A stretch of DNA of 64,000 bases from the NCBI GenBank assembly GCA_002633005.1, contig NMRA01000885.1, positions 33,842-97,841 on the forward strand, read 5' to 3'. A program made the translations under genes and the position numbers. Numbering within the stretch: the first letter of the stretch is position 1; the number at the start of each line of letters is the position of its first letter. Under the pieces are notes generated by a model. It did no database searches, was not told where the DNA came from, and was given only the letters and a program-made list of their open reading frames with translations. This document shows, in pieces, positions 935 to 30,509 of the stretch. The stretch is from Phoronis australis. Lineage: Eukaryota; Animalia; Phoronida.

Positions 935-1197
935 TTAGTTACTAGATTTGAATCTGACAGGTCTTATCTTCATACTGGTTCTCTTCATAGAGTAGAGGCC
1001 TTTGTAATAGTACCAGATGACTCGTTCTCCTCCTGACTTGTGGTTACCGTGATGATACAGACCGTTCAGGTTGGAGTAATGACAAGCGTTGTACCACCAC
1101 GCGCCTTTATAGTCAACAGCACAGTTTGCAAAATGGGCGTCGTTATCTCTGTCCTTGGTGGTGAAGGGTTGACCGTTTTGGTAGATTAAGGAATCAC
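935..1197 (-). CDS. Gene A FReD terminal exon (GDSL...FTTKDRDND...[15 protein letters not shown]...MKIRP)
   Basis: FReD P-subdomain motifs; CAG acceptor; TAA stop at 935-937. Confidence 0.93.
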
Positions 1198-4100
1198 CTG
1201 GATTAGAAATATTAAGATGAATACATAATCGTGACAAGTTTTGTAGTCCTGTTGGTGATCATATTCTGTCATGAATGGGACATTATGGGAAAATTTTTGG
1301 CTGATCTGAATACCGGTGTGTCCTTTAGTGCCAATTTTAGTTTTTTACGTTGAACGTGTATCTTCGGAATTCCTTAACGGATTGTCATAAAACTTGGCAA
1401 ATATGTATCCATTAGAGAGATAACGACATGTTCTCGCTTTCGAAAGGCGAATTTCGGATGTATCCAATTACCGATATGTCCCCTAGTGACAGTATTAGTT
1501 TTTCACGTTTATCTCTGTATCTTCGAAGTTCCTAAACGGATTTTCATGAAATATGGCACATAGGTGTCCATCAATGAGATGACGCTATTCTTGAGTTTTG
1601 GATAGATTCGAGGTATTTTGCGCCATCTACTTAACATTTTTTTTTCTGTTTTCAAGATTTTGTCGCCCACCCTCTATCGACCAAACCGGCCTGTGATTAT
1701 GAAAATTGGCATGTATCATGTTCGTAGTGTAAAAAAACGGTTGACGACGATTTTCCGACGGCCATTTTACTGTTTTCTAGTTTGTTTTAGGCATCTGCCC
1801 CTATATCGACGAAACAACTCTAAGGATGAAAATTAGCGTTGATGTTTCTACTGTAAGAAGGATGCTTATGATGATTTTCGGACACTCGGACTACCGTGGT
1901 GCTTACTAGTGGCAGTGTTTTGCATATATAGCATCTGCTAAACCCTCTGCAGGATCTTTATTAAATTTGGCAAGTGTATTTCTACGAAGTTGACACTAAC
2001 AACGACAACATTTTGATGGAACCAACTACCGTGGTGCTCCCTAGTGGCAATTTTTGTTGTCAGCTGTGTCTTTGAAACTCATTGGCAGATTTTCAATAGA
2101 TCTGTTTCTATTAGTAAGATGACGAAGACGCCCTCTCATTTTCGGATGGATTTGATGTATTTTGCACCACTCTGTTGCCATTTTAACAATTTTTGAGTAC
2201 GTTTTTGACATCACCCTCTCAATCTACCAACCACTTGAAGAATCATTTCTAAATTTGGAGATACTGTATGTTCCTAATAAGAACAAGTATGACATTGATT
2301 TTCGGACATGTTCAACTTATTTTCCCCTCCCCCGTCCACGGCTGTATCTCATTAGCCTTTGCAAAATGTCTTCCTGAAATTTAGCTGATTTGCTCCTAAT
2401 GGAGATGGTAACTGATGACGGACAGTTTCAGACCAATCCAACTACAGCTTTGCTCCCTACTGGAAATCTTATTTTTTACATTTGCCTCAGTCTGTAACTT
2501 CAGAGTTCCTTGATGCTTTGTCATGTACATGTAATTGGGCCAAATTTTGTATCATGAAGACAACAGCATGTTTACTTTTGCTGATAGATTCGATATACAT
2601 GTATTACGACACAAATAGAGCCATTTTTAATATTTTAGTCTGTTTTTGTCTCCTGCTTTTGTATCTGCCAAACCAAGCAGAGGATCGTTATGAAAATATT
2701 GGAAGATGTGTTCATTCTGACAAGAGCATGACTGACTTCAAACTGGTCCAACTACTGACAGTGATGGCTTCTTTAGACACTTATTCGCATCAAAGTTTGT
2801 ATCTCCTAAACCCTTGTAATATTTTTTTTTGAAATTTCGCAGTTGTATTTGCATTAGCTTGACAGCAGATGGATGGATTCAACTACTGCAGTGGTTGCAA
2901 ACAGTAGCTTGTATTTATTACATTTGCCTTTGTATCTTTTGAGTTCTTTGACAGATTTCATAAAATTTGGCGAATGATTTGGAAAGACGGCGACACCTTC
3001 CCATATTTGGATGGTTTCAATATATTGTGAGCCATGTAACTGCCTTACTTGATACAAATAATCAACCCATCACTGTTTGTGGTGCATTCGTGGGCGCATT
3101 TCATTCGCCTTGCTCTATTAACCAGACAATTGTACATGTAAGGCTGATTTTGAAAATTGGCTTATATATTTTGACTGTGAAGTGGACAGATGACGATGGT
3201 GTTTGGACAGATCCAAGAACTGTGACACCTCCTAATATTTGCGTCCGTGCTTTATCTCATAAAGTCTCCGCACGATCTTTGTTAAAGTTGGCAAGGTGAT
3301 AACAGATGATAACCCCTTTTGGATGGATCCGACTACTGCTGTGACCTCTAGTGGCACTTTTATTTTTCCCATTTCTTCTTTATCTTTGGAATTCCTCGAT
3401 GTATTTTCATTAAATTTGGCATATAAGTTTCTAAGCAACAATGACACTCGTTTCCAGATGAATTACGCATGATGTACATCTTCTAGAGGCCATTCTTTTT
3501 TTTCGTTCATCTCTATATCGGCCAAACCATTCAAGAATGGTATATGCGTTCTTACTGGGAGGAGCATGGCTGGCAATGATTTTTGGACAATTTTGAATAC
3601 TCTGTTTTTCCTTAACCTCTGCTAGATCTTTATAAAATTTGGCAAGTGCAAAATCTTCACCCATGCCGTAAAATGTCAGAAAATCATTTACACTTAAAAC
3701 GATGGTCGTTTTTTCAAATATAATGATTACTTGGACTGTGAATATTAAAAATATAAGTAAACTGCGGGCGTCCTGGCGCTCAATGGCTTCAATGCTAGAG
3801 CTAAAATGACTGAACAAGATTTCGTTACTTTGGTAAAACAGATTTTTGTAACCTTCGCTTACCTGCGTTGCCAGAATAGTTGCTGATAGCTAACTTATAT
3901 TTTTCTCTCTCTGACCCAATAGAGAAATCTTCGTAGGCAGCGTACACTGCATTATTGCTGAAGTCTTCTAATTCCACTCGTAACTTGTAGGCGTCTTGAT
4001 GTGTTAACCGATTAATGTTGTCGTTGCCTGTAATATTTATTTAAACCCACTCATGTATAGGCAATTAACAATCACAAAGCTCCCTTTCGGGTGTTTGGGA

Positions 4101-7100
4101 ATTTTCTTTCTTTCTAATTTCATTTTGAAATGTGTTTTTAAACCATTCAAGGTTATGGTATTAGACTGAAGACTTATATGCATTTGAATCGTCCAGTGTA
4201 GGGATGAAAAAATCTTACCCAACCAAAACTCTCCATTAAGATAACCAAATCCTGCCTTATAGTCGGACCATCCTCTATAGAAGTCAACGGACCCATCTTG
4301 ACGTCTCTGGAATACCTGGTTGTATCAAGTAATTCATTGTTAATATAACTTGCTTTAATAACCATCTTTAACGGCGGGTTATTCACACAGAAACAGGTAC
4401 ATGTAAATGATACAAGCATTTATATGAAGTTTCCATGTGTATGCATAGTGGTCAATCAAGTTTTTGGATGTTGTAAGTAGTTTTCATCTAGTAGATTTAT
4501 CAGTTGATTATTTATAAAGGTTTGTTATAAAAAGAACACGTTACTTTGTCCCATTCTCGGCATATTTACCGTCCAGCCTCCTCCGTTGGTCACCATGTCA
4601 CAGTAAACATCCATGTTACTAAAGCCATCTTTCGGTTGAATAGCGTAAACACCACTTTGTCTAAAGCCATTGTTATACAAATCTGCACAATCTTTTCCTA
4701 CAATCGGAGAAATGCGAAAACTTGTCTTCCATGTTCTTATCAAAGATTCCACCAACCATATTCCATCATTCATACATACACGCGCACACATACACGCGCA
4801 CGAACGNCAATCACACATGAAGCAAAACCAATAGAAAGAGAATGCAGTGGGAAAGGATCCTCAGAAAGGTATTGCAAAATTGCAACATTTAATTATTCAA
4901 GCTACATGTACATGTATGTTCCATTATATAAACATACACACACGCCCACATCCGCACACGCACGCATGTAAACATACGTGAAACAAAACCAGCAGAAAAA
5001 CAATGCAGTAGGAAAGAATCCTTCAGAATGGTATGACAAAATCTTTATAAGCAACATTTAGTCTTAATGCTATACACATGTAGTTATCCAAGAACCATTA
5101 TTTGGATGACGTTATTAAATTTGGGAATTAAAGTAAGATTCTTGGTACAAACATAATATACATAATATTGACCAATAGTTTTAACAGTTGCTAAATCTCT
5201 TTGAAATTTGGCACCTGTTTGTTTTTCAATATTTTATTGTTTCCTCTAACAATGTTAAACTGTATCATAAAAATTAGTCATCTAATTTTCAGCCGAATAT
5301 ATTCATTTAATGTATTTCAGACAGCATGAAATGTAATATAGCTGATTGTATGTTACGCTGTGACTCATGCCTTGAATAATGATCAAGATTGCGGTATTTT
5401 TGAGAAAAGTGTTTAGCAATTTTTGTTCATTATTTCCAGATATCAAGCCAGAAAATTTACAGATTAGCTGAAGAACACACTGAAGTTGTGTCACATTGGT
5501 AAGCTGAACATAATTGTTCAGAACAGAGACAAGCTGTATTTGTAGTATATTAAAGGGAAAACTATGCAAAAATTATTGACTTTGGTTATGGCGACTACAG
5601 TTGCAAAAGTATTTAAACAAATAATATTGAAAATTGTGAAGAAATGGTAAAAGAAGGAAGATATAATGTGACATGCATGTTTTTGGTTTACAGCAGCCTC
5701 ATGTTTCGGAATGAGGTCATAAAAATGTAGTTAAAGGAAATCATTGGCCAAAAGAGAGTAAAGCTTCTCAAAGTCTGACGATTTTGGTTAGAAGACATTT
5801 ATTTTTACAATGTTAAGTTTGTTGCAGGCACGCGTCCTCCATGGATAGTACCTGAGTGATCATGTTTTTAATTTCTAGTTCAGTGTTTTATTTGTGACTC
5901 ACGTTACTGTGCACTTTGTCCACGGAGCTGCTGCTGGAGTGGGTAATGTTGATGTAAGGTTGACAGTCTATTACTTTAATGATTATTGTACGTGATCAAG
6001 TTAGGAATGAAAGATAATTGCTTGACTTTGTTTATAAGTGCAGAGGTGGAACTGCATGAGGGGTTCAGGGGGTTCAACCCCCCCCCCCTCGGGACAGGAT
6101 CAAAAATTAAAATTTAAAAAAATGTCGCCAGGAAAACAAACTCACTTACTAAAACCAAAAAAAATCTTACACGGAGGACTCCCCTCCCACTGCGCCCCTC
6201 AGATTCGCGCAAATCTCCCTTACTGAAAACTTACATCTGCGACTGAAGTTTAATGTATTCGATGCTCCGTGTATGTGGCCAAATGTACACTGTAACAGTT
6301 AGAATTTAATTGTTTTATTCCACCGGTTACCAGTGACAAACGATGACGTATTCTTGCCAGTCAGAAAATTCTCGTTTAGGAAAAAAAATTGATTGAGACA
6401 GTGGAAAATCAATTTCATTTTTTTTCAGATCAAAAGTTATGTCAAGTTTTCGAAATAACATTTCAATTTTGATTCTCAAAAATTGGCAAATTTACTAAAT
6501 GCTACATATAAATACAGAGTTTTGTGTTTTTGCCAATTTGGTTTCCCAAAATCAGGAGACTCCTTTTTGAAGGATGAATATCTGAGATAGAAAGTTATTA
6601 AATCCAGAATGAAATGTTGTGAAAATATAATATTAAATGAAATTCTATTGATTTTTTGGTCTTTTTCATTTCATTCCAACATTAGTAACAGATACACTTT
6701 CTTGCATACAGCTTGAAGTTCTTAGAAGTACGTTCGAAATCTGTGTACTGTAACCGTGAATTAAATGTAAAACATGGTGAATTCCCTCTAATTCCCTAGT
6801 TCTTCAACTGCCATCTGTATTGGTTTCGTAGTTAGTTGTGTAGTTCGCTACATTTTTGCAGAAGCAAAACTAGTGTTATTTATAAGTGCGAGATTGTACC
6901 CCCGCAGTATCTGTTACAAGATAATTTGTTGACAATCTAAAATGACCTTAGCAAAAATGCTGTTGATAACGGAATAGAAATACTTTTTTACCTTATTTAC
7001 GTGTAAAACTTACTTTCCAAGCAACCATTCTGTGTCCCAGTTTGTCAGTTTTTTTCATTTTGAGCGCTATCCTGTCGCTCAACTTGGATTTTAAGGCTTT

Positions 7101-10100
7101 ATTAATAATAACGGGCTACCAGCGAGATTGCCGCCTAAAGGCTATATGTGAAATAAAACGTCACGTGACCACATAGGTGCAGACGAAAAATCTTTTTGTC
7201 ACTAATGAAAAATGGCGGAGACTACTGGAATCCGCCAATTCAATTATATAGTTAACAAACCATTACACATAATTCCAAAGTTCCTCAAGCAGGGAGGTAA
7301 GGTGGCCGAGCAGGGAACAAGGTGAAAATCAATCACTTCATGTGGCAGTGGCCTGTTGAAAGTCTCAGCGCAATGCATCGACATTTTTATCAAAAACTTT
7401 GTCACAAAATTCAAACATGACTTTTGTTCTGTTGTAACCATTGGTAACCTTCCTGAGCGGACTGAAAAATGGTGATCAGATAGTTGAAAATTCTCGCTTT
7501 GATTTTTTCTATTGAACTTTTAGCCTCAGCATTAGACGTTAATCGTCGGCAGTCACCGAAAACTTTGGTATGAATTCATTTGTGCTAAAAACAAGCTAAT
7601 CATACTTTGTTGGAGAAGTTTTTTGTAAAAAAATTATCAGCATATTCAACATGACGAGATAGCCAACCCCCTTTTTCATCGCTAAGGTCACAGTTTGTGT
7701 GTATAGTAAAGTAACGAAAAGACGTAATACACCGTCCAGTCTTCAACCTGTTAACAACGATAAGACCATCGACACATTTGGTTGAGATATCCATTGTTCT
7801 ATTTTAATGTTAAGCAGATACGCACCTTGCAAATGGACTCTGCGTTAAGCACTACGCCTATAAGATTAACTACATGTTGTGGGTCATCGTGTATCTCATG
7901 ACTCGTGAAAGCGCGTCGTGTCGATACTACCAATCAGAAAGACTTAATGAAAATTATTCAGGGCATACAGGAACCGAAGCTGAAAATAAGTGGCCGTCAG
8001 ACTGTATAACTGAACAGATGCTGAACGCTCAATTTGCCCGTTCTTTACACAAGAAGTATCCAAAATTATCATTGGTCATATTGACAAAATACCATAACTC
8101 CACGCATACAAGCAGTGACAACTTTATAAAAAAAAAACAATGAAAAAATAACGGGTTTGTCTCTAAACCGCAAAAACCTGACGTGCCGAGCTGTGCTTTA
8201 GAAGACTTATTGATGATTAACAGTGTATTCAATATACAGAAGTAATATTCACCATTAAAATGGCCACACTTTTAAACACTAATTTTTAGCTTTCACCCGC
8301 AACCAAGGCCCCGCCTTCCATCATATTATTGGGTCCTAGAAACGGCAAACTTGTTATTTGACAGATGCCGCAGATGAATAACGATCAGTCTCAATTTTTG
8401 TTAAGTGAACAGAGAAGCTGTTGACTAGTATGGGGTCATCTGTGAACGTAGGGCCCCAAGTGTCTACTTAATTGCCTGAATGCCACTGAAGGAATGTTGA
8501 GTTGCTCATTCACTTACCTTTCGTCTTTGTCTCATTCATCAACATAGCGTAGGTCAAATTCAAATAACCTGTAATATTCAACAAGCTATTATATCAATCT
8601 TAAATCAATAACAAACTACATTTGGCATCGTATGTGAGAGCTCACAAGTGAATTAATTGCTGTAATCTCAAATTTTATTAGATGGTATGATGATCTGCGT
8701 AGGTTTTTCATCAATTAACCTTTCGCACGATTAGCTTTTTGCACCGCAGTGTTAATCTGCCAACCAAAATGTACCTGAACTCAAATCCCCCCGGGCTCCT
8801 TTGGAAAATACAAAAGTTCTGAAAATAGTGCTCACCACTACTGACCACCATGAGCTGACCACATACTTGTGGTGCTTATGAGAACGTTGTGACACCTGAA
8901 GATGGGTGGAGCAATGGTCGACCAAAACTCGGCAAATTGAATGTAAAGAGGCGAGAAGTTGGTGTAGGCCAATAGATTTTAAAAAGAATGACCCAACTTA
9001 TTTAGTCTTTCTACTGCTCAACAAGAGTGCTGATTTTTGTTTTTGAAGGGTTTGTATTCTACAAACTGTAAGTGCTCAAATTCTTATAACACATTGTTAG
9101 CAACTGTACCATCCAAACCATTCTAACAACAAAATAAAACGTTTCTTAATTTTAATGAAATTTCAATCGTCTGCCAAATTGTGTATTGAAAGAAACAATT
9201 CACACTGTAATTTGATAGAACGATTTAAAGAAACAATTTACATTTTTAAATTCCTATTTTCTTTGTGGTGAACACTGTGCACTTCATTGTGCGACTGGCA
9301 TATAAAAAGTTACTTTTGGCAGTAAAAATTCTTCAAAGTCATTTTATCAAAGTGAATGAGAGCATCAAAACACACCAGAATGATGAGAAAATACATCCAA
9401 GCATTGAAATAGTTTTATAATTCAAATTTCATGAAGTGTTCTTACTTTCGAGATCACTAAGCTCCGTTTTTAATATAACCTGCTGCATTTGTAGACCTTG
9501 TTGTTGGAACTTGAGGAAATCACCAGTTTCCTTTGCTTGTTGTGTGTGGTCACTAAAATCCTGCTCAAGACTGTTGTGGGCTACGTCTAGGTTGTTCAAG
9601 TCTGTATTCAACTGCTTGTAAACGCGAGACAAATATTTCAGGTGTGTAGAAGTCTTGTGGTCTTGGGCTGTCCTCTCTTCTGATAACCTGTTGAGAAATG
9701 TTTCTTGCTGTTTTATCAGAAGGCTTTGGTTTTGCTGCTTTCTTGAAAATGTGTTGATTCTTTGTTGCATTACACTGGTTCTGTTGTTAATGTTTTCCAT
9801 GCAGTCTGCTTTGTATTCGTCTACTTTCATATTGCATGCTTTAATCAATCGAGTTTGGTCGGTCATTGCCTTCAAAACAAGAATCTGTTTGTCGCGTATC
9901 TTTGTTTGTGAAACTCTGAAGGCATCTTGCTCACTTGTCTGGTTCCAGCTGACCTCCTTCTGCTCAGCCAGCTGTTGGGCAATATCGACTTGGGCACTCG
10001 TCAGTGATGTAAGCGCAGCCTCACACTTATTCAGCAGTTTCTCTTGTTCAGCCACTTGCTTCTGTAGGTCGTTCAGCTCAGATGCCTGATCACGTGAATG

Positions 10101-10505
10101 AGTCATCATCAGATTTTGACGAGCCTCGAGCAATGACTGTTTTGTCATCAGGTTTTGCTGTGATTTCACCACATGGACCCTGTGAGACAGAGAGGCAAGA
10201 CCAGTCCCGTATCTCTGTTGTCTCAATTTTAAATTTTCTATTTCCTTTTCAAGGTTTATGGTCTTTGCTTCGTCTAACATTCTTAGCCATGGTAGTTCGA
10301 TATCATTTGAAGGCCTGTCAACGATATTTTTAGAAGTCGACTGCTGCGTATTAGTGAAGACTGAATTCAGCACCTTCTTTAGCAAGTCCAGCTCAGTTTT
10401 GATGGCGTCCCTCTGATTACGACACTCTGAAGCTGTCAATGGCTCTTCTCCTGCTAGTACATAATGCAAAAACAGTATTGCAGTGAGACACTGCATGCAA
10501 GCCAT
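935..10505 (-). CDS. Gene A: secreted coiled-coil + fibrinogen-related domain protein (angiopoietin-like/FREP architecture); join complement(9446..10505,8518..8568,4570..4697,4219..4315,3863..4027,935..1197), 587 aa
   Basis: All six exons have GT-AG boundaries with matching phases (1,1,0,1,1); 1764 nt, no internal stop. Hydrophobic signal peptide, ~330 aa Q/L/K/E-rich heptad region, FReD motifs [57 protein letters not shown]. The link between the coiled-coil exons and FReD exons is inferred from phase and the absence of another candidate downstream exon. Confidence 0.8.
1290..3600 (+). mobile_element. Non-autonomous element with degenerate internal tandem repeats (Helentron/DINE-1/pearl-like) in gene A intron
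   Basis: Many diverged subunits sharing CC(C/T)TAGTGGCA, GATGGATTCG and AAA(C/T)TTGGCA motifs; end segment TGTGGTGCA..TTCGTGGGCGCATTTC (3078-3103) shared with 26566-26592; family assignment is inference, boundaries approximate. Confidence 0.55.
3863..4027 (-). CDS. Gene A FReD exon 3 (GNDNINRLT...LRVELEDF...YSGNA)
   Basis: Canonical FReD motif; 165 nt; AG/GTAAG. Confidence 0.93.
4219..4315 (-). CDS. Gene A FReD exon 2 ([32 protein letters not shown])
   Basis: Canonical FReD motif; 97 nt; AG/GTAAG. Confidence 0.93.
4570..4697 (-). CDS. Gene A FReD exon 1 (GKDCADLY...[13 protein letters not shown])
   Basis: Canonical fibrinogen C-terminal domain start; AG/GT boundaries; 128 nt, same as paralog 21149-21276. 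Confidence 0.93.
4770..5085. repeat. Diverged ~160-bp tandem duplicate with CA-rich tracts; single-N join at 4807
   Basis: GCAAAACCA..AGAAA..AATGCAGT.GGAAAG.ATCC.TCAGAA occurs near 4822 and near 4983. Confidence 0.6.
5440..5498 (+). pseudogene. CDKL5-like kinase pseudo-exon ([17 protein letters not shown]), with stop and 1-nt deletion
   Basis: ttccag acceptor, GTAAG donor; matches the DIKPENLLI...LKLCDFG exon of CDKL-family kinases; 59 nt where 60 would keep frame. Confidence 0.75.
5918..5944 (+). pseudogene. Deleted remnant of CDKL5-like activation-loop exon (STELLL + donor only)
   Basis: GTCCACGGAGCTGCTGCTGG-GTGGGT aligns to the 3' end of 26737-26827; flanking non-coding sequence is homologous. 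Confidence 0.65.
6040..6246. mobile_element. Short MITE-like insertion (CAGAGGTGGA...TCTGCGACTG)
   Basis: Absent from the homologous position in unit 2 (~26925); degenerate inverted ends like the 63193-63321 family. Confidence 0.45.
8518..8568 (-). CDS. Gene A 51-nt phase 1-1 linker micro-exon ([17 protein letters not shown])
   Basis: ttacag acceptor, GTAAGT donor, open frame; paralogous exon at 30113-30178 with conserved splice sites. Confidence 0.8.
9446..10505 (-). CDS. Gene A first coding exon: signal peptide + long coiled coil
   Basis: 358-aa ORF; [19 protein letters not shown] signal peptide; phase-1 donor GAA A|GTAAGA at 9445; 1060 nt = 353 codons + 1. Confidence 0.88.
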
Positions 10506-13369
10506 TCTGCTTCTACAGTGTTCAACAAATTTAAAAAAATAAGAACGTGAGGCAGCTTTTATTCTTCCTGCAGCTTGGGTAGATATGGAAGCTAACGCTT
10601 ATCCTGGTGTACATCTGGTTAGACGTAACTTCCCCATTGTTTTGAACAAAGCAGTTAACCATTACGGCTGTATGCAGGGATTTTTAATGAAGGTCGCGTA
10701 CCCGGTAGTCTTACGACCTACCATTGTTAAGTTGGAAATTTGTCAACATGAAAATTGTTCAGTATTTAATAAAGATTTTAACTATATCTTCATCGTAGCA
10801 ATAATTCATATAGTTACCTATGAAGATTCAAAGTGACAACCCTTTGATTTTTCAATTTTGACACACGACAACATTGCAACAAACATTCAAAATGCAATTT
10901 CTAAAGGTAATTCTTGAGATTCTGGAGTCAATAATGAAAATTTTTTGCGACTATCACAAAACCAACAGGAAAATATGTATGTACAATATTTACAAACAAA
11001 TAAGAATATAAATCAAGAGTTTTTACTCACAATGTACCAGCAACTCAAGTCCTTACACAACTTGTCCATGTCTCTGTTTATTCTAAATTATCGTTGTTCA
11101 TAGTCGTGAAATCTTCATCTGTGAAAAAGCCAAAAAAATATCAAGTTCCATGTATTTTCGTTTGTTTGAAAGCCTCAGTATTGTATCAAGCCTAGGTAAG
11201 CTAGCAAAGGTTTTGACTTAAGTGCTGCCAACAATTTGCGTCTCACACATTAAGTAACTCGCACACTGATCTGACAATATTTTAGACTTTCAGAAGTTAT
11301 TTACATTTGATGCTAAAGGTAACAAATGTTACAACAGATGAGGATTATCAAAAACATGCAGTTGTAATTAATTTATGGCCTGCTTCACGACAAAATTTGT
11401 AATACATTTAAAATACATATCAGCAAATGACTTTAAACAACAAACTAGCATCACGTGACAATGGTAGCGAAAACTTCAGATGAAATTGAAGACATCTTTA
11501 AAGACATAAAAGTTGTAACCATACCAAAAAAGAATCATCCGTCCTGAAATATCCAAGAGAGCACCTCAGTCCAAATGGTCCATTGGGTGCCATCTGTATT
11601 ACTATCTGGCAAGGAGATTGACGTTTCGTCCAGGCTATTGGGTTGTCTCTCACTTGTACCATAATCTTCATTCTGTGTTTTTGAACTCTTTCTTAGTCTT
11701 CAAGTTAAGAGTCTGGCAAACCAGCCATGGGAAACATAACTCCATTTTTGTCTGGCCCTTTGTCTGGCACGGTAACTTTAATTCGCTGTTCGGCCTCTGC
11801 ATTTTCGCCACAGTTGAGGCCATTACAAACTACTCCAATAAAGAAAACTAAACGATACTGGTTGAATAAGCTGATTAAAAATCACGAGACTTGTTTAACA
11901 GAAAATTACGTATCATTCCCACCTATTCTTATTACATTGAAGAAAGTCATGGTGAAGCATAAAACGTCCAAGCCCATGCTGGTTGTCATATTTAATGTCA
12001 ACACATTAGGGAATAGGAGAATATATAGAACTCGAGAAAGAAACATCGGCTAACTTAGTTTTAACAAATTTCTTGAATTCTTCATTGCCTTCTGCTGCCA
12101 TAAACAGATGTGACGTACATCTACATGTGACTTATGGAGCCTTAATTTTGATACCATGAACAATTTTCCGATTTCTTGGAAACGAATAATTCCCTTAAAT
12201 GCATTATTGTCACATATAATTATGTTCACCCGTCGTAGCGTATTCTTAATACGGTAATGGATTCAATGACTTGGTCTATGTTATGGCCCTGTGGTTAGTG
12301 GACTTTGAAGAGCTTTCCCCTATTCAATATTGGCATTTTAGTTTTGTATTTTATATAAAGGTTATGGTAAATTTTACTTTTCTTTAAGCATTTAGGTAAT
12401 GAATTATTCATGTCGTCAACAGCATTTTGCAATTTTTTAGCATTTGTATTGATGTACTAATCTTTTATAAACAGAAAACTAATTTTTGAGCAATTATTTT
12501 TGTAAAACATAGAGAATTTCTGCAAAATGTCACATTGTGAATAGTGTATGGGACCTTTGCCGTCAGAGTAGATTGACATTTTTACTGCAATCCGCGGTTT
12601 ACTCAGGCCTCAAGTCAATTTGTTCTTTCAAAGCCGTAGTGGTAATATTGTACATACATGTATACCCAGCATCCCCTTTGTCCAATCGCATGTTGTTACT
12701 TTTGCTCCTCTGCTGATTATACGAAAATGGCTTGACAGATAATGGATGCACCGACAAAATTCGCTTTACAGACAGATTCGACCACCGTAGCACGGCCACA
12801 TCAGTTTACAGCAAGACTCCTTGGACTGTGGATTGTTGTCAAAACAAACTTGACACAAGGGTTTATTGTTAGATGTGCTGGCACCAGTCAATTTAAGAAT
12901 GACATTAACTCCTTAAGCACCAACTGATAGCCAATGAATCAACAAAAGTATTTCTTGGTTGTTTCTAACACATCGGCTTGATAGGTTTTGGTGTAATTTG
13001 ATGTAAGGGGTCAAATACGACTGGCAATACGTTCTTAGATGGTGTTGTTGCAAAACATGCAGTCATAACGTTATTAAATTGTTATCTCTGTGGCTTGTTT
13101 TAAGTTGACATCAAATGCACGAGGTATTGACGTGTTTGATGATGGGACATGTCATAGTTGTTAAGTTTATTTGCTTCCAGTTTCTTGTCTTGAAATGTCC
13201 TCAAACTTTGGAAAACCCTTATCAAGAGGTAATGCGTGGAGTGATGTTGAACCGTATGAATGTACATGTAAGTGGCATTGTAATGAAATGCTAGGTCGTA
13301 ATACCACACCAAGGTGACTAGTTGATTCTTTAAGTATTTTGGGGGGAAATTTTACTCAATTATTGGGGA

Positions 13370-14400
13370 TGCTAAGAAGAGCCGCCGCTGTCCACAACGA
13401 CCTCTGGAGGTGTGCCAACCAAATTGATCAGGCTCGGTCCATTACAGTATGGCTCATCTCGTCTCTCCTACTACTTTATTGGCGCAGCATCAGGAGCCTG
13501 CCCACTTCCCGTAGTCTTCTTGCACCACTGTTCATTCCTCTTCTTCCATATCCACTGCGACGCCCTCTCCGCTCGCTCGCTTATAACACTGATGGCCTTC
13601 TTCCTTTCCTTTCCTGTCACCCTTAATGCACGAAATGCCCTCCATACTGACTGCCCAACAAATCCCCTGCACCCAACTTCAACTGGCCAGTACCATACTC
13701 TGCCACCCCCTACTTCGACATTCCTCGCACAACTGTTGATATTTCTCTTTCTTCCTTCCATGTGCTTCTTCTATCCGCTCTTCCCGTGGCACTGTCAGCT
13801 CCAGCAGTATTACCTCCATCGTTGCCGGTGACCACATCACGATGTCTGGTTTCAGACTTGTCTCCGCTGTCTCACTTGGGAAGGTCATCCTTCGGTACTG
13901 ATCGACGTTAGTCTTCCGCAATGTTCAGCACACCTCCTCCTCCTGTCTTTCCTTGAGTTGAACTACCCGCCAGCACAAAATTAACACACTGTGACCCCTT
14001 CAGCACTTTCTGCTCCTTTTTGCGTTCCCTCTCGAGGCTCTCCGCGATCACCTCCAACACCTGGCCATCCCTCCATGTATATTGTTCGTCTGACAACGCT
14101 GATGAGCATGATGACAGCACGTGTTCCAGGTTTTCTGGCTTCTTACATTACACACAAGTCGGATCTTCCATTAACCAACACACAGTCACGCAAATAGGAT
14201 GGGCTGGCCAAAACATCATATAGAGACCTCAGCAAAAACCTCAATCTACTCTCCTGCATTGCCCAGATCTCTTGCCACTTCAAACTCCTCTGTCTAACTC
14301 CCTGCCAATTCAGCCAACTGCCTTGCTATCTCATGCCTGCTGCTCTGTCTCTTCTTGTTTCTTGTTCCATGCTTCTCACATGCTGCTGTACTATGATACG
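13370..14400 (-). mobile_element. 5'-truncated, frameshifted non-LTR retrotransposon with restriction-like endonuclease (HERO/NeSL-R2 group)
   Basis: Zn-knuckle region ..MLSSC..AL...YTWR, then LKPDIVMWS..VILLELTVP.E...EEAH.RKK.KY and PVEVGCRGF...AERASQWIW, split over three frames. Confidence 0.85.
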
Positions 14401-14429
14401 TCTCTGTTAACCGTGCTTCCTCGTGAATA

Positions 14430-14555
14430 TGAGTCCGTGTCCCGGGTATATAGGTGCGTGGAACGTGTTTTGTGAGTCCGTTCCCGTGTTTGTGAATCAG
14501 TGGACGGTGTTTGCAGTCCGTGAGTCGTGTTTATGAGTCCGTTGACCGTGTAGTT
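14430..14555. repeat. Degenerate ~21-bp minisatellite (CCGTGTTTGTGAGTCCGT-like)
   Basis: About five imperfect copies visible. Confidence 0.45.
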
Positions 14556-16905: not shown

Positions 16906-18311
16906 CACCACCGTTAAAATAAATGAAAAACTTCCTTGGACCTCTTAATGTCACATTTTAGAAAGGGCTCCGAAACTAAATGGACATCGAGCTCCATAAA
17001 CAGAATTTATATTTGCTTTCATACTATCTTGCATTGGTGCTGCCGGCCACTCAGGATGGGGAGAGGCTTCATAGTTTCAGTAGACAAGTGCATTTTTTCG
17101 ATTTTCTTCACCTGCATCCAAAAACTTGCAGTCCCACAGCTTACGCCGATGCTCTCATCAGACCCGAGTTAACTCAGTATGAAAAGACTTACAGAGCTGT
17201 TGTGCGCATGTGATAACATCTAGATCTTTTGTTAACTGACCAGCCCATTCTTTTTTGGTATGATAACATGCCGACCAATTATCTACCCGCCTTAATACCG
17301 ACCCAATGTGAACACCGTCAAAACAAACCGTCGAACAGATAAGATTGTCTTAATATCTTCAGTTGTGGTTGGTCGATTTTGGTGTTTGAAAGACTAAACA
17401 TGATCCGCAATTGGCGAGGAATTCATTAATGTTAGTGGTTTATGGCCAAACATTTTATGATATGACTTTTATTTTTAACAGCGCAGCCCAATCAGACTAG
17501 ATATGATCTTAGCTGAGATTAGAGATAATATCAAACAAAAAACCGCTTACCCACTAACCTTAAATGCCAGAATGAAATTTATCAGTCTTGTAACATATTG
17601 GCTACAGCAGTCATCTACCCAACTTGTTGCTGTGCTATGCAACCGAACAAGTTGGACTCAACGAGACAACGCCGTAATGGGCTTTGAATTGTCCTCTTTA
17701 AAGTGTATTTCCTCTTTCTAGTTTTGATTTCCTATTCTTTGATTTCCATTTTCCTGTTTTTTGCTCTTGTTGTCATTATTTTGATTTTTATGCTAAAACG
17801 TTATTTCAGTTAAGTTTTACAACACAAAATATATTTCTACCACACAAGCCAATATGTGGAACAATACGACACCTGGAAAAATTTCCTCTTCTTTATACAT
17901 TGTCATTCCAAGCCTTCATTTCATTAACATAATCAGTTTCTTACTTCTCACCCAGAGCTGTTTCTTAGTCTCATGTTTGCAAAATTGATAAACATGTGCG
18001 TAAAGACCTGCAAAACGCGGGATGTTTTGAACATGTGTTATTTATTTTCTAACGAATTTCGACAACATTTTTTCCATAAATATGTAATTTTTATTTCTTT
18101 ACCTTTAAAAATAGTGAACAATATTTAGCATAATTGCATGTTGAGTAAACGTGTCTGGATTACCCTCTTCAAAATGCAACATCTCTACATGTACATGTAC
18201 GAAACTACTTTTACTCTTCAGTTATCAAATGCCAGTAACTGTTCATGCAAACAGGTTACCAAATATCAGGCACAAATCAATAAAAGCTGAAAGGCATGTA
18301 TCGTGATATCA

Positions 18312-18317
18312 TTTATT
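18312..18317 (-). terminator. Candidate polyadenylation signal AATAAA of gene B
   Basis: AATAAA on the minus strand ~45 nt after the stop codon. Confidence 0.45.
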
Positions 18318-18360
18318 TTCGTATTCAAGTCAGTTACCTCTACACGTCACCATAATTCGT

Positions 18361-22625
<4,265 letters not shown>

Positions 22626-22724
22626 TTGATCGAGATGCAGCGTCATTGTTCTCATTCGGGTTAACACGGTGAAATGTTGTTGAATGTTCCTGTTGCAGTG
22701 CCACTGGTCTTTCGCCGAGAAGCG

Positions 22725-22731
22725 TTTTATA
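22725..22731 (-). promoter_or_regulatory. Candidate TATA box (TATAAAA) of gene B
   Basis: About 100 nt upstream of the ATG at 22625, with a CCAGT Inr-like motif ~25 nt downstream. Confidence 0.5.
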
Positions 22732-24920
22732 GACGGCGATCTTTTCACAAGATTATAAAAACCCTTGAAAAAGTATCCGTTATCGATCGGTATCTCTACA
22801 ACCAATCGGATGCGAAGCATCCAACTCGTAACTGACGACCTATGTACATGCAGCTAACTTCGTCTGGGGTAACGGGTGATATTTATCGTCTTTAAAGGCG
22901 AAGGCAACCTGTTTTCATGTCATTTTTAGCAAAAATAAGGTTCGTTGATTATCTCAGCCACATTTTTCACTTATTTAATGCTTTTCGTAATTTAATTAAT
23001 TACTCTTTACTTTTTATAATAAAATCTGAATAATTTATTTGTGATGCCTTAACTTTAGCTTGATATTCATAATGTCTGAGCCGAAATGGCCCCATTAAAT
23101 TTAATATGTTTAATTTTTTCATTAATACAATTTTAGGAATCAGGAAAGGCTGATGCTGAAGAAGCGGCTTCTGCTGAAGTTGGAGACCTGCCGATTATTA
23201 GTAAAGGTTGGGTATGGAAAAGTTCAAAACCAGCAAGAAATTACCCTTCTGGACAACTAAGTGAGGGGGCTAGAGAGAGACCGAAAAGTCTACTCCCAGA
23301 AGATATGTCAAAGAGAATTTATAACTTGAGGAACGAGTCCGGGAAAAAGTATTTGCCAAAGATTACTGGGTTTTACCACAACAGGTCCAATGTAATTTGT
23401 TGAGATAGGCCGCTCTCAGTAAATGTGGGGAAACTGGGACAGAGGAAGTGGAGTATGCATTGAAAGAGGCAATCTGCGATTGTCAAGGATGTAGCATTGT
23501 AAAAATTCAAAGGGAGGAGACAGTACTGTGGCTGGACCTGTAAATACTCTGGCTGATTTGCTAAATCCATTGGTGGTATCATTATGTCAGCACAGCTGTG
23601 TAGGGAAGTAGTCTTGTGTATTTTTGCAAGCTTTGTTTGCACCAGAACTGCTGTGTGAATAGAACAAATCTAAATTTACCTGTATTGATTTTTTGCCCAG
23701 CCACCAATCATGATCCTGGGCCAGTGGATTATGTTGGTACAGCCACATTGTAATGGGTACATTATTTTTTTTGTTTAGCCACTGGATTTTTTGGTCTGAT
23801 AGCATTTTTCAGTGTGGCCAACACATTTAGACGTTTGTTTCGTGATTTCTGACCAATGTACTGTTCCTTTTCCTTGAAACTGTAAAATTGATCAGAAGTT
23901 GTGTTTCCGCATTTTATTTACCATTAGAGATTTTTGTTTGTAAATGAGTATTTATTACTGACATTTGAGCCCCTGTTGTAGTTAGGCTGGTTGTAACACT
24001 CCTTTCAGGAGGTAAAGTTTTGATTTAGACCATTTACCTTCATAAAATTTTCTCAATTATGTTCCTGATGCAGATGGGAAGTGATTTCTGGAATTGCAGC
24101 AAATTGACAGTTTGTTATTCCTCAAGACCACGCTGTGTGCATAAAATCACACACCGTTAGACAAGCCATCTTACAGAGCCTGATCAGAATTGACTAGGAA
24201 ATAAAATACCTATTTCATGATGGTAAGTTGTCTAAATCAAAAGTTGTTTTATGTGATAGTAGGCGGGTTTATGTCCACTTCAAAGGATGTTTTGTTGCAG
24301 TACTGAAAAATGTTAGCACATTAGCCCTGGTGATTGTGGTGGTTATTTTTGATAAGAACATGGATGTGGTTCCGACAGCTACCTCAAAGTTGTAAAGAAG
24401 GAGAAATTTACAATGTTGCCAGCGACATTGCAAAATCCCTTTCTCGCAGTGAGACTACATCACCTTAAATGTAATTCCCTGACTTCACTTGATGGGTTTT
24501 ATGTGGTTGACTCTGTCCTCTATCAATGGGGCTATTCGGAGAATTCTCCTCGCGGTGTCGCTGCTGTACTAGTGGTGATTGAATTGCGCATGCGTGGCTG
24601 TCTGCATGTAAACAACTGGTAAAAGATGGAATTTTTATCAAAATACGTCGTCTCGCTAAGCCTTATTGACTTGGGTTGTTGTGATGAAAGTAGCAAAAAT
24701 TATTTGTAATGAAAAATTATTGAAAACTGTGTGAACAAAAGGTGACAAAAAGACATATGGTGACTTGTTTGTTGGTTTGTAGTCACCTTTTAAGTTTGGG
24801 ATTGAGGCCATAAAAATTTCAGTTAAAGACTGTTAAAGGTAATTATTGGCTAAAAGAGGGAAAAAGTCACCACGAATAGACTCCCAAAGTCTGATGATTT
24901 TGGTGAGAAGATATTTATGT

Positions 24921-26614
24921 TTATGCGCGCACACATTTATATGTGGATGCAATATGCTGTCATCGGGCGTCTGTCTGGCGTCCTCTGCTCTATCTCCCAA
25001 ACCCTTTGGCGTATATGTTCACGAAAGTTTGCATGTGTGTAACTTTCTTTCGTAGATTAGTGAACTTTCGAACGGTTTCGAATACTGGCGTGACCCCTAG
25101 TGGCAATTTTAGATTTTTACGTTTACCTCTGTATCTTCAAAGGTCCTCAATGGATTTTCTTAAAATTTGGCATGTAGGCATCTATTAGTGAGATGATGCT
25201 ATCCTCTCGTTTTCTGATGGATTCGAGATCTTTTGTGTCATCGAGTGGCCATTTTTACTGTTTTCAAGTCTGTTTTTTGGGCGTCGTCCCCTCTATCAAC
25301 CGGAATGATTGTGAATGTTCTTACTGTGAAGAGGACAGCTGACGATGATTTTCTGAAGACTGTGGCTATTCCTAGTGGCAGTTTTGCTTTGTTTTGCACC
25401 AATGGCTGTATCTTCTAAACACTGTGCAGGACTTTTTATTTACTTTAGCATTATTGTATATTTACATGAAGTTGGCAATGGATGACGACGATTTTCCGAC
25501 GGAGCTGAGTGCTGATGTGCCCCCTTGTGGCAGTTTTAGTTTTTTAAGTTTGCCTCTCTATCTTCAAAGGTCCTCAACAGATTTTCATGAAACTTAGCTT
25601 AGCCATCTATTATCAAGATGACGCTATCCTCCCGTTTTCGGATGGATTCGAGGTATTTTGCGTCACCTAGTGGCCATTTTTTCTGTTTTCGAGTTTGTTT
25701 GTCGGCGTCCACCCCTCTGTCGACCAAACCACTTTAAGAATGATAAATTGTGAAAATTGGCATATATGTTGTTATTATGAAGAGAATGGCTGAAGATGAT
25801 TTTCCCACGACTTTGACCACTGTGGTGCCTCCTAGTGGCAATTTTGTTTTTTGTTCCCATGGCTGCATTTCCTAAACCCGCCGTATAATCTTCACTAAAT
25901 TTAGCAAGTGTATAATGAAGGTGACAACAGATGACGACGACTTTCGTATGAATCTGACTACCGCCGTGCCCCCTGGTGGCAATTCTATTTTTTTACATTT
26001 ACCTGTATCTTCAAAGGTCCTTAACGGATTTTCATTGGTAAGATGATGCTATACTTCCGTATTCGGATGGATTCAAGATATTTTGCACCACCTGGTTGGC
26101 ATTTTTGGTGTTTTTAAGTCTTTTTTTGGCGTTGGCCCCTCTATCAACCAAACCACTCTAAGGATGTTTTTAAAAATTAGATTGTGTTCTCAGTGTGAAG
26201 AGAATGGTTGACAACGACAACTTTGACTGCTGTGGTGAATCCTAGTGGCAGTTTTGTTTTGTTTCGCGTTCATAGCTGTATCTCCTAAATCCACTCCAGT
26301 ATCTTTATTAAATTTAGAAAGTATGAAGTTAACACAAGATGTCGACTTTCAGAAAGAACCGATGAACGCTGTGTCACCTAGTGGCAATTTCATTCTTTTC
26401 GGTTTTCCTTTGTTTCTGTCAATTTTTTTGACAGATAAATTTACCATACCTTTTTATTAATATAGAAATGATGGCATGTTCTCGTATTTGGATGGATTCG
26501 ACGTATTTTGTGCTATCTTGTGGTCATTTTTTGATACAAATTAGCAACCCCATAAACACACCATTTGTGGTGCAAATTCGTGGGCACATTTCAGCGCTCC
26601 GGGTTGCACTTGTT
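24921..26614 (+). mobile_element. Helentron/DINE-1/pearl-like non-autonomous element with internal tandem repeats (same family as 1290-3600)
   Basis: Interrupts sequence that is contiguous in unit 1 (~5805); GCGTCTGTCTGGCGTCC near the 5' end, repeated CCTAGTGGCA/GATGGATTCG units, ends ...GCACTTGTT. Confidence 0.65.
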
Positions 26615-26736
26615 ACAATTGAAGTCTGTTGCAGGCATAGTTACTCCATGCTAATAGTGAATAATTGACGTGTATTTTTGTGAATCTGCTTTTAGGATTT
26701 CTATATCTGTGACTGATGCTTGTGTGCACTTTGCAG

Positions 26737-26827
26737 GATTTGCCCGTTCCATATCGGGGATCGGCAGCGGTAACTACACTGACTACGTGGCCACCAGGTG
26801 GTACAGGTCCACGGAGCTGTTGCTTGG
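26737..26827 (+). pseudogene. Orphan CDKL5-like kinase activation-loop exon ([31 protein letters not shown])
   Basis: ttgcag acceptor, GG|GTGGGT donor, 91 nt; TDY motif and [13 protein letters not shown] as in CDKL kinases; SPE changed to STE; no other intact kinase exons found in the window. Confidence 0.75.
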
Positions 26828-28015
26828 GTGGGTAACATTGATGCAAGATTGACAGTCTAACAGTTCAAAGATTCTTGTATGTGGTACTAGTCAGTAATGT
26901 GAGACAACTGCGTGACTGTGTTTAACGTAAAATGCAATCCATGCTCGGTGTATGTGACCAAATATAAATAAACTTTAAGAAAAATACACTGTTGGAAACT
27001 ATTTTTTATTCCACTCGTTTCCAATGACTCATATCGATGCTAGTCCTTATTTCGCTCTTGAACAATTGTGCTAGAACATTTTCTTGCAGTGTAGGGCATA
27101 GATGGCGCATTGTACTAGCATTTTGTCATGTCAGTATAACAAAACATGACACCGTTATAATCTCTTAAGCATTTTTTACCAAATATCTTACAATTCGTGA
27201 CAAATTGCTGCCCAAATTAGTTCATACCAGTAAGTATCCAATGAACTTCTTGCACAATTACCAACTGCTATATTTCCTTCTTGTCTCTTGTTAAATGGTC
27301 GCAAGTATCAAGACTCTGATCTGAGGAGGCTTGTTAATTACCAACGCCAGAAATTTGTAACATGCACTACTGCGCATGCGCTAAATCTTGCCAGCAGCCC
27401 TCCATAAGAGCAGGCTATAATCAGGAATTTATAAGCGAGGGGAGATAACTGCACAATTTGCCGATAGCCTGTCGCATAGAGTGTATGTTAAGACTTGTTA
27501 CTGCCAAATATCAGCGTCATTGGTGAAAAATTTTCCACGTCTCTTGAAGTTTGAAGTTTGTTCCATTCAGGCCTATGTTAACGATCGTCCGGAAGCCCAT
27601 ATCTGAGCGCATAGCTCATTTTGAAGTCAAGTTTGTGGCTGAATTCATTTTGCCATCGGATTTGCCGATAGCGGAGGTGATTACCAGGAGTACTCAGAGG
27701 TTGCTGGTTCAAATTTCATGCTGTTTTTTGAAAAATTTTCCACGTCTCTTGTGTTCAGAAAATGGATCCACGTACAGTGCTGTGAGATTAAATGTTGCCG
27801 ATCGCGCCGGCTGTCTTGCAATGGAATTTGCACTGAAGCTGTTCAAAGATTTGTACTTTGCTTTAACTTGAATTTATAATCAAAGAAATCTTTTCAACTG
27901 GACTATTGTATCATTAAGTTGAATGTAATAATCTTATAAACTGAAATTGATATACTGCTAACAGCCAATTATGAAAACAGTTGTTGCCAATGGACACCAA
28001 AGAACCATTATAAGC

Positions 28016-28791
28016 TTATTTCCACGTTATTTCTACTCTTAACTGATGACCCCTGTCCCACACATAAAGCACTTTATCCATGGGGTCATAATGAGCGTGT
28101 GCTGCATAGCCATATTCATTACTGTAACTTATACCTGGGTTGGTGACAATGTTGTTGTCACATGTGTCAAACACATGCGAGATGGAGCTGCTTTCATAAC
28201 GATAGCTGTCGGTCACGTAAAGTTTGCCGCAGACCATAAATGCATTGCCCTTTGACGTTTTTGTGATGGGAATTTGCCAGGTTTTGTCAACGGCGAATGT
28301 CAGTGGGTCAACCCTGCCCAAGACGAAGTTACAATTTTGGTCTACGTTTGCCCAAACAATATAAACCCCTGATTCATCGAATTCAATGTCAATATCAGAA
28401 AATCCGCGCCACTGGTAAGAGCATTTATTTCTAAAGGCCACGTTAGTGCCGAAGTTTGACAATTTAATCAATTTGTATGGCTTGCTCAAGTTTGCCAAGT
28501 CATACACAAGTACCAGTGATGCATTTGTCTGTGCGCAGAACAGTTTTCCACCAATCATCTGGGCTTGAGCGCCATCGCAACCTGTTGGCAAGCGGTAAGA
28601 CTTGACATTTTGGTTGTTTGTGAAGTCTGCCTCTGAAGGATATAGGTTTAGAGTTCTTGCATTATCGTAACCATCCATGCTGTAGAACGCTCCTGTTTTT
28701 GATAGTTGGTCCCTTCCAAATGTACCTTGAGTAGAGCCTCTTTGGGAGAGAACCTGTCCCTTCTTGAACCCCAGTATGTCTCTGCATTTGG
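28016..28791 (-). CDS. Gene C terminal exon: complete olfactomedin (OLF) domain on one phase-1 exon
   Basis: Frame open for 257 codons + stop from the ttcacag acceptor at 28792; OLF motifs YQWRGFSDIDIEFDESG, GNAFMVCGKLY, YDPMDKVLYVWDRGH. Confidence 0.9.
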
Positions 28792-30112
28792 CTGTGAATG
28801 CAATTAGTTATGCGTGACTACTCCACATTCAGCAACTGATGGGCAGATTATGTTAAATATTATCAACTGTACAAAGTATAGTCTGTGAAAATGCCTTTGT
28901 TTAGGTGAAATTATTTTGATTGAAACGGTGGAAAATAAATTGCAATCTGTGTTCTTCGGGTAAAAACTTGTCTCAAGTCTTAGACATTAAATGTCACAAA
29001 AATTACCACAGTTCCAAAGGCTATACATGACTACACTTATCTGTACAAAGTGTGTGAAGTTTTGCGTTTCATGACCGCGTTTTGTCGTTCAGCAACTTTT
29101 CCAGACGTGAGGGGTTCTGAACGTGCGATAACATCTGGCTCTTTTGTTAACTGCCCAGCACATGTTTTGTGCCGTATGACAACAAGCAGGCCAATTATCT
29201 CCCAGGCTTCAAACGGTTACCGAAACCTGGCAGAATGGATTGTCTTAACTTCTGTAAGTTGTAGTTGGACAATTTTGGTGATTCAAAAACTATAAATATG
29301 ATCACCGTTTGACAAGGAATTCAGAAATGCTGTTTGTTTATATTCAAATATGTTACAACTTATCTTTCATTTTTAGCAGAACAGACCAGTTAGGCTACAT
29401 ACCATATGATCGGTGATTAGAGTAATTATCGAACAAAAGAGAGCTGGCCCTCTAACCACAAATGCGAAAAAGAAGTTAATCAGTGGTGTAAAATATTGGC
29501 TACAGGGGTTATCTCCCCAACTTGTTGTTGGGCTATAGAATCGAACTAGTTGGGAGCAACGGGAAAACGACGTAATGTTTCAGGATTTTTACTAGGACAC
29601 CTAACAAAATCTTAGGATGCATTGGTGACCTGCTTGTCGCCAAATTGAGCCCTGGCATTTTTGGAGAAGCATTAAAATGCTTTCTAAAGATGATAACATT
29701 GCAGCTCCAGCATATCTCTTATAAGATATTTTGTTTTAATTTTCTAAAACGACTTTAGCAAAAATGATATTGACAAGGAAATGCTAACAATTCTTTTTGA
29801 CTCACTTGCTTGTAAAATCTATCTTCCAGGGAACCAATCAGGATTCAAGTTCTGTCGCTTATTTTTATAATGGGCAATATCCTGTCATGGATTTCATTGT
29901 TTTAGTCCTAACTACTGCAAACTTGTTATTTGCCAGGTGGCGCAAACGAATAATGAGTCTTGGTTTTTGTTACACGAATAGAGAACAGAGAAGCAGTTGA
30001 CTAGCATGGGGTCATTCCTGAACTTAGGGCCCCACGTGTCTACCTAAGTGCCTGGATGTCAGATGGTATCATTAACTCTACCGTAGGAATTTCGAGTTGT
30101 CCATTCACTTAC

Positions 30113-30178
30113 CATTAGTTTCTTTGTTCTTACTTACAGTCTCATTCATCAACATGGCATAGGTCAAATTCAGGTGAC
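30113..30178 (-). CDS. Gene C 66-nt phase 1-1 linker micro-exon ([22 protein letters not shown])
   Basis: Paralog of 8518-8568; ttacag/GTAAGT; in frame with the OLF exon. Confidence 0.75.
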
Positions 30179-30249
30179 CTGTAATTAAATTAAACGAGCT
30201 GTTACAATTTGCTTAACACTGACATCAACAAACTTTGTCTCAGTCATCT

Positions 30250-30304
30250 TTTTTGAAAGTCTAGTTTTGAAAGGAGTAGTGTACAAATTTATCTGTGCTG
30301 GATG
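30250..30304 (+). mobile_element. Tiny Penelope-like GIY-YIG fragment (VVYKFICAGC) at the inversion breakpoint
   Basis: GTA GTG TAC AAA TTT ATC TGT GCT GGA TGT resembles the VVYKFxCxxC start of Penelope endonuclease domains; very short. Confidence 0.4.
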
Positions 30305-30509
30305 TCTGCACAACTGAAATATCTGTCTCGTGTTTACAAGCAAATGAATACAGACTTGAACAACCTAGACGCAACCCACAACAAACTGGAACAGGATTTT
30401 GCTAACCACACACAAAAAGCAAAGGAAACTGATGACTTCCTCAAGTCCCAACAACAAGGCTTACAAATGCAGCAGGCAATATTAATAACGGAGCTTAATG
30501 ACCTTGAAA
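30304..30509 (+). pseudogene. Inverted, 5'-truncated copy of the coiled-coil exon (3' ~68 codons) of gene C, followed by inverted intron 1 to ~31365
   Basis: [19 protein letters not shown]...ELNDLE A|GTAAGA matches the end of the gene A coiled-coil exon but on the opposite strand; 30510-31365 matches the reverse complement of ~8640-9445. Confidence 0.88.

Follow-up and report, generated by a model that had tools for sequence, protein, structure and literature searches.

A gene for a predicted secreted coiled-coil protein with a fibrinogen-related head in Phoronis australis and the probable olfactomedin origin of its stalk

The window considered here is a stretch of 64,000 nucleotides of the phoronid Phoronis australis (GenBank assembly GCA_002633005.1, contig NMRA01000885.1, positions 33,842 to 97,841 of the forward strand), intron-rich animal DNA with a G+C content of 39%, in which two tandem units carry related genes. 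Unit 1 holds gene A, an open model of 587 amino acids whose coiled-coil stalk is joined through a linker micro-exon to a fibrinogen-related domain (FReD), and unit 2 holds an olfactomedin (OLF) exon together with gene B, in which a FReD is preceded by a PAN domain. Gene A probably arose when a FReD gene gained the stalk of an olfactomedin gene by deletion after the duplication. Both the combination of coiled coil and FReD and the formation of chimeric genes through duplication are already known; the part that appears new is a probable, traceable exchange of an OLF head for a FReD head.

Self-comparison by blastn, together with the junction sequence, places unit 1 at 297–16904 and unit 2 at 16902–33146, joined over a 3-bp overlap (TGC, 16902–16904). 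The tandem arrangement had been proposed in an earlier reading made from the letters alone (the sequence-only reading), and the five non-coding landmarks which that reading had found colinear between the units (5572~24660, 5820~26630, 6250~26930, 6900~29700 and 8340~29910) are equally borne out: with two more, at 5918 and 6364, they show 76–86% identity between the units, and their alignments score 46–201 against shuffle maxima of 24–33, each of them beating 100 of 100 shuffles. Three repeat-free landmarks of unit 2 are low-copy, with a DNA read depth of ~100–190 against ~75–90 for a single locus. That the two units are alleles is ruled out by their synonymous divergence (dS 0.34–0.47), as against 96–97.6% identity in the assembly overlap repeats. 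The last 730 bp of the units (16176–16904 and 32416–33146) are 89% identical, above the 76–86% of the other landmarks, and contain an identical candidate micro-exon of 12 nt on the plus strand (AG...GTAAGT, 16560–16571 and 32807–32818); plus-strand RNA depth is low there and the DNA copies number 2–4, and the similarity may reflect a conserved element or gene conversion. Diverged satellite-like repeats at 1300–3600 and 25060–26600 have insertion sites that differ between the units, and the RNA seen over them comes from other copies; high-copy repeats at 27363–27804, 28910–29793 and 31341–32445 reach a DNA depth of ~1,700–158,000, and the OLF exon lies between two of these.

Gene A lies on the minus strand and comprises six exons with an open frame of 1.76 kb and GT-AG at all junctions. 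The first exon (9446–10512, ATG at 10505, 353 codons, phase-1 donor) encodes a signal peptide, recognized by eye, and the coiled-coil stalk; it is followed by the linker micro-exon (8518–8568, 51 nt, phase 1-1) and by four FReD exons at 4570–4697 (phase-1 acceptor, with spliced reads), 4219–4315 and 3863–4027 (both from the model and RNA reads) and 935–1197 (with the stop codon, from Pfam and a spliced RNA contig). The FReD spans 217 amino acids, with a Pfam E value of 2.8e-25 on the last exon. The stalk, of ~330 residues, has a heptad period of 3.5 (p = 0.013–0.031 in four segments) and cysteines at 28, 161, 224 and 235, and is predicted to be all-helix, with long helices, by a single-sequence model of low confidence (pLDDT 60). 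No Pfam family matched it, Noelin-1 included, no homologue was found among 3951 candidates scored in the size range 213–681 amino acids, Foldseek gave no fold match at E <= 0.001, and the Atlas held none at 0.9, its best matches (0.86) being generic coiled coils. The FReDs of genes A and B are 82% identical in nucleotides, with a ratio of nonsynonymous to synonymous substitution (dN/dS) of 0.32 (p = 2e-7), and are sisters with an SH-aLRT of 99 in a quick tree in which 34 of 88 forks are open; their best matches elsewhere, at 60–67%, come from corals and a brachiopod. Since the gene A stalk compared with its remnant in unit 2 gives a dN/dS of 0.31 (p = 0.007) and the linkers give p = 8e-5, the stalk and the linker have been under purifying selection since the duplication.

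In unit 2 the OLF domain occupies a single minus-strand exon with its stop codon (28016–28791, phase-1 acceptor, Pfam E 1.9e-49), which matches noelin with an E value of 1.4e-35, has 4xat as its best PDB match and shares no more than 38% identity with any representative. Aligned to noelin, its calcium triad reads Asp-Asn-His in place of Asp-Asn-Asp, by the myocilin numbering. The triad varies among family members (PMC6719662). A linker micro-exon of 66 nt (30113–30178, minus strand, phase 1-1), homologous to that of gene A, stands directly upstream of the OLF acceptor and forms with it an open pair, which supports an olfactomedin parent. Gene B, also on the minus strand, is an open PAN-FReD model of 336 amino acids, made of an exon for a signal peptide (by eye) and the PAN domain (22304–22655, Pfam E 4.2e-5, phase-1 donor) and of FReD exons within 18361–21276 (21276–21149, 20913–20817, 20691–20527 and 18629–18361; Pfam E 4.3e-29 on the last). 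Among 55 longer proteins no homologue of the PAN exon was found. The TATA box claimed for this exon is present as a putative TATAAAA at 22731–22725 on the same strand, and it is equally correct that the coiled-coil, linker and PAN donors and the OLF and FReD acceptors are all GT-AG and phase 1.

The stalk of unit 2 did not fare as the sequence-only reading had it. Linker, OLF, CDKL remnant, PAN and FReD follow one another as described; the coiled-coil exon does not stand in transcription order, being reduced to an inverted and truncated 3' remnant on the plus strand (30305–30509, 68 open codons, ~285–353, donor intact). The intact coiled-coil-OLF ancestor supposed to lie here is, in this assembly, a disabled relic, and the window contains no intact gene of that kind. 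By tblastn only 70 residues of the stalk were found in unit 2, on the plus strand, and a unit-2 copy of the signal peptide and of the first ~285 stalk codons is nowhere in the window. Remnant and intron form an inverted block (30305–31367, plus strand, matching 9650–8642) bordered by repeat DNA, with a DNA depth of 1,600 in the bin at its left border and of 10,000–57,000 over 31341–32445; because high-copy DNA borders the block, the stalk was likely lost through repeat-linked inversion and deletion. Since the remnant is open, its donor is intact and its dN/dS of 0.31 resembles that of the FReDs (0.32), the unit-2 stalk gene was probably functional for much of the time since the duplication. 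Among the DNA contigs listed none crosses the inversion breakpoints by 31 nt, the contigs stopping at 30303 and ~22 nt beyond 31367. The block may be a segment that flips between repeats, but flipping it back would leave the 285 codons still missing. A second linker copy inside the block was rejected (score 20 against a shuffle maximum of 26), and no terminal inverted repeats were found at 31364–32445. One DNA contig, whose pieces start at the exact seed matches of unit 1, has the linker and the stalk intron un-inverted; an un-inverted third copy behind a 30185->31187 joint was rejected, the contig pieces beginning at those exact matches.

What unit 1 lacks is the OLF exon and the PAN exon, neither of which was found there by tblastn, as had been claimed. 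In place of the OLF block, which measures 1.85 kb in unit 2 (27040–28886), unit 1 has a scar of 18 bp (6346–6363); the gap pointed out earlier is thus real, and its sizes of ~550 bp and ~2.6 kb needed refinement, part of the difference being a high-copy repeat (~28910–29790). The reported CDKL remnant of unit 2 is confirmed as a plus-strand CDKL5-like kinase exon (26737–26827; best PDB match CDKL5, E 2.7e-6) with a Pro to Thr change in its RSPE motif (base 26811). Unit 1 retains the 3' end of this exon (5918–5938, plus strand), the 5' part being deleted in a 74-nt gap. A probable preceding exon, frameshifted and with AG/GTAAG ends, lies at 5440–5498 on the plus strand and has no counterpart found in unit 2; it is probably CDKL-like, to judge by a kinase motif, and its PDB search was not significant. 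No Pfam kinase was found in 60 of the 90 open reading frames between PAN and OLF, those of the satellite being set aside. As the intron between linker and FReD of gene A contains antisense debris of CDKL5 exons, gene A would be a join of regions that were once separate.

The direction of change is suggested by a second OLF locus. In a DNA run that may be the assembly's own source (X2), two OLF contigs occur at equal depth, and the second, with 111 differences in 690 nt, runs into the same CDKL exon. At base 26811 RNA reads carry C in 11 of 11 and 36 of 36 cases, giving Pro as in CDKL5, and units 1 and 2 both carry A. The DNA depth of non-C letters at this base is 48.8, against 80.8 for the second OLF contig, and this is too low to include that contig, which should therefore carry C. 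The second locus would accordingly be paralogous, in the same genome, and an OLF-bearing outgroup to units 1 and 2. Because the two units share a derived base against it, OLF would most simply have been lost from unit 1 at 6346–6363, as judged on one base. For PAN the trace is an inverted match of 28 nt between 4728–4754 and 24337–24364, upstream of the PAN exon, whose score was reached by none of 200 shuffles. One coral and one sea star have PAN combined with FReD, and the combination is also described for other animals (PMC11741071). Of the steps proposed, the disappearance of PAN from unit 1 is the weakest.

The sequence of events was probably as follows. A piece of a CDKL5 locus with an antisense stalk-linker-OLF gene would have become positioned upstream of a PAN-FReD gene, and the block would have been duplicated in tandem. 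Unit 1 would have lost OLF, and probably PAN; the linker could then be spliced to FReD exon 1, the phase-1 state of every junction preserving the frame. Unit 2 would have retained OLF and PAN-FReD, its stalk being later inverted and truncated between repeats, and relatives of gene A that differ in the length of the stalk would have arisen, which are expressed.

RNA from four runs (X5–X8) was placed on 900–17000 at 90% identity, and reads on 26700–33300 at 82%. Splicing of the FReD introns is seen in 105/94/119 and 12/11/3 reads, and one X5 contig spans the last of them. Sense reads (48, 22 and 1) join FReD exon 1 to the stalk at 10048 with other letters in between, which are absent from the window, and the last-exon reads of the runs with this joint carry several differences from gene A. 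This transcript comes from a paralog of gene A with a shorter stalk or from a strongly diverged allele, and the stalk family and the FReD family described here occur in shared mRNAs. The linker and the 3' end of the stalk have sense reads only, ~9–11 read-equivalents per run for the linker as estimated from bin depth, and the X5 stalk contigs show 0–1 differences from gene A. A second long-stalk variant, ~93% like gene A, occurs in X5 beside the sequence of gene A and is the only form at sites 9807 and 9819 in X6–X8. OLF reads are likewise sense-only (depth 3.6–45) and stem mostly from the second OLF copy, a few matching the copy of the window; an X5 contig of the second copy, 979 nt long, has 109 differences and 92 unplaced nucleotides at its start. 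A third stalk in X5, with 25 differences in 204 nt and a depth of 68, was not placed on gene A at 90%.

Several results weigh against a deletion origin of a working gene A. The earlier claim that stalk and FReD share one mRNA stands for the close relative just described; the 15 joints listed, out of 74, do not include gene A's own, 8518->4697, and reads 99+% alike number 26 of 2276, 11 of 2071 and 19 of 2079 placed, totals that include many repeat reads. The FReD reads of X6–X8 come mostly from the paralog or divergent allele, and the near-identical contigs of X5 include intron pieces (5387–5696) and may represent unspliced RNA or DNA. No linker-to-OLF joint occurs among the 15 of 98 joints listed. 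An intact stalk-OLF transcript elsewhere in the genome is suggested only by similar X5 depths (68 and 59), which are not equal in X6, and by a length compatible with a 63-nt linker, presuming a contig overlap of 30 nt. The direction of change comes from a single base through depth arithmetic, in which 48.8 is itself under the depth of one locus; it is drawn from a paralogous locus, and gene conversion could mislead at this character. The loss of PAN depends on a 28-nt match that may have other copies. The core of the proposed chimera holds up and gains from the stalk-FReD mRNA of the relative, from the second, expressed OLF copy and from the CDKL remnants; its PAN step is the weakest, and its unit-2 parent survives as a relic.

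Three other explanations have to be considered. The locus could have been a single transcription unit before the duplication, giving stalk-OLF or, by skipping the OLF exon, stalk-FReD, with the duplicates dividing the two products between them; gene A would then have fixed a splice form already present instead of owing its existence to the deletion. The matching phases would permit such skipping from linker to FReD with no change in DNA, and the scaffold from stalk to FReD is common to both units; a Branchiostoma lanceolatum model (P0158, 1317 amino acids) even has an OLF among five FReD stretches, although this OLF is only 23% identical and the model may be an independent case, a real fusion or a merged annotation of tandem genes. 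Skipping would, however, need to bypass a terminal exon along with CDKL debris and the promoter of PAN, and no such isoform was seen in the reads placed on 900–17000 and 26700–33300, regions that leave 21276 outside. With the unit-2 stalk inverted, the switch between heads and stalks by splicing or promoter choice, which the sequence-only reading had offered as its alternative, cannot run from this haplotype, and we regard the ancestral version as unlikely too.

It is quite improbable that the stalk and FReD of gene A do not form one mRNA, gene A being a weak relic or having another first exon, with a shorter paralog as the working gene. The missing joint, the few near-identical reads and the dominance of the paralog in X6–X8 would fit this, as would the zero depth, in all four runs, of the candidate 5' untranslated exon at 11118–11031. 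Against it stand the 1.76 kb open across six exons, the selection on the FReD (dN/dS 0.32, p = 2e-7) and the sense-only reads on the linker and the stalk 3' end; no other first exon for the FReD was found, and the N at 4807, inside a two-copy repeat of ~115 bp, is in register. Least probable of all is that stalk-linker-FReD is ancestral and that unit 2 acquired OLF and PAN by insertion. Coiled coils with FReDs are widespread (a coral protein, P0191, among them), several stalk-FReD relatives are expressed here, and two sequences alone cannot separate insertion from deletion. But the second locus has OLF beside a CDKL exon in the ancestral state, unit 1 has demonstrably lost part of its CDKL exon, a comparison with a coral FReD stalk showed no relationship to that of gene A (E 0.94), and the ancestral gene would need to be interleaved with CDKL5 exons.

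Among known proteins, coiled coil and FReD are combined in FreDC2 proteins, such as FreD-C3/4/7/11 of the nemertean Lineus (PMC9835746, in part), and in proteins of scallop (CfFREP), oyster and prawn (excerpts of PMC11741071). The gene A model shares with FreDC2 and the coiled-coil proteins of other spiralians the signal peptide, coiled coil and fibrinogen C domain and the lack of collagen. A multimeric pattern-recognition role has been proposed for FreDC2; for gene A multimers and secretion are predicted, the signal being read by eye. It differs in its stalk of ~330 residues, for which no homologue was detected and whose paralogue precedes an OLF exon, so that the origin is traceable. Amassin, a coiled-coil OLF protein whose disulfide-linked oligomers clot the coelomocytes of sea urchins (PMC2173732, in part), shares with noelin and myocilin the layout deduced for the parent, namely a single terminal OLF that starts at a cysteine and cysteines in the stalk; by contrast, the gene A stalk lacks the Noelin-1 family of Pfam, and the OLF copy of the window has lost its same-strand stalk and signal peptide. 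With angiopoietins and ANGPTL proteins gene A shares the order of signal, coiled coil, linker and FReD, and to this extent the earlier description as angiopoietin-like holds; it does not extend to the FReDs, since the last exon ranks FIBCD1 (3.5e-22), tachylectin-5A (TL5A, 1.2e-21), ficolin-2 (2.3e-21) and also tenascin-R above angiopoietin-1 and -2 (ANG1 3.3e-17, ANG2 5.2e-18; ANGPTL6 9.1e-21), and no homology of the stalks was found. The calcium ligands of FIBCD1, tachylectin-5A and ficolin (Asp393/Asp395, Tyr405 and Cys414-His415; PMC3908420, in part) are present in gene A, whereas in the S1 pocket Tyr431 and Ala432 are Gly and Gly and Trp/Tyr443 falls in a gap; gene A also lacks any collagen or membrane-spanning part.

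Chimeric genes from tandem duplication are known in Drosophila yakuba (PMC5460883, in part), where, as here, duplication-linked shuffling combines the 5' part of one gene with the 3' part of another. In gene A, by contrast, the join is attributed to later internal deletions, whole globular heads would have been exchanged, and the case is old (dS 0.34–0.47) and under purifying selection. None of the 36 OLF-bearing proteins scanned among 150 OLF matches listed carried a FReD, and no traceable exchange of OLF for FReD was found among the literature matches listed, from a coverage that leaves out most subscription journals.

Elsewhere in the window, direct copies around a single N (34259–35568, 42214–42929 and 53411–54961), 96–97.6% identical, are probably allelic overlaps that the assembly left uncollapsed. 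Local tandem repeats of 77–78% identity occur at 18711–19630 (~460 bp) and 59309–60098 (~255 bp). Scattered minus-strand exons at 39480–55830, the last of them (39480–39660) transmembrane-like, resemble by eye a ZP-domain membrane protein; Pfam on two of their open reading frames was unconvincing, and tblastn with a ZP-bearing protein gave no match there. Rfam gave no match in the window.

Gene A is predicted to encode a secreted protein that forms oligomers through its coiled coil and clusters calcium-binding FReD heads. Coiled coils cluster heads and thereby give avid binding, and the product can be inferred to be an agglutinin or a pattern-recognition protein. Since Tyr431, Ala432 and Trp443 are lacking, the classical N-acetyl group is probably not what it binds, and by analogy the stalk cysteines could cross-link chains. 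It is possible, if doubtful, that this genome possesses a lineage-specific secreted coiled-coil chassis bearing OLF or FReD heads through a phase-1 linker, gene A marking the point at which a FReD captured the stalk of an olfactomedin gene; because the stalks are 87–93% alike, the two products would co-assemble, and mixed oligomers would couple microbe recognition to amassin-like clotting. Gene A exemplifies a known process and not a new type of system. Coiled-coil FReD proteins have been proposed as invertebrate counterparts of ficolins, and the source of their stalks is rarely visible; here the olfactomedin parent, the deletion scars and the CDKL5 debris, as passenger markers, lie side by side, so that a convergent origin of the coiled-coil-FReD layout becomes directly testable, and one stalk with two unrelated heads provides a natural pair of proteins.

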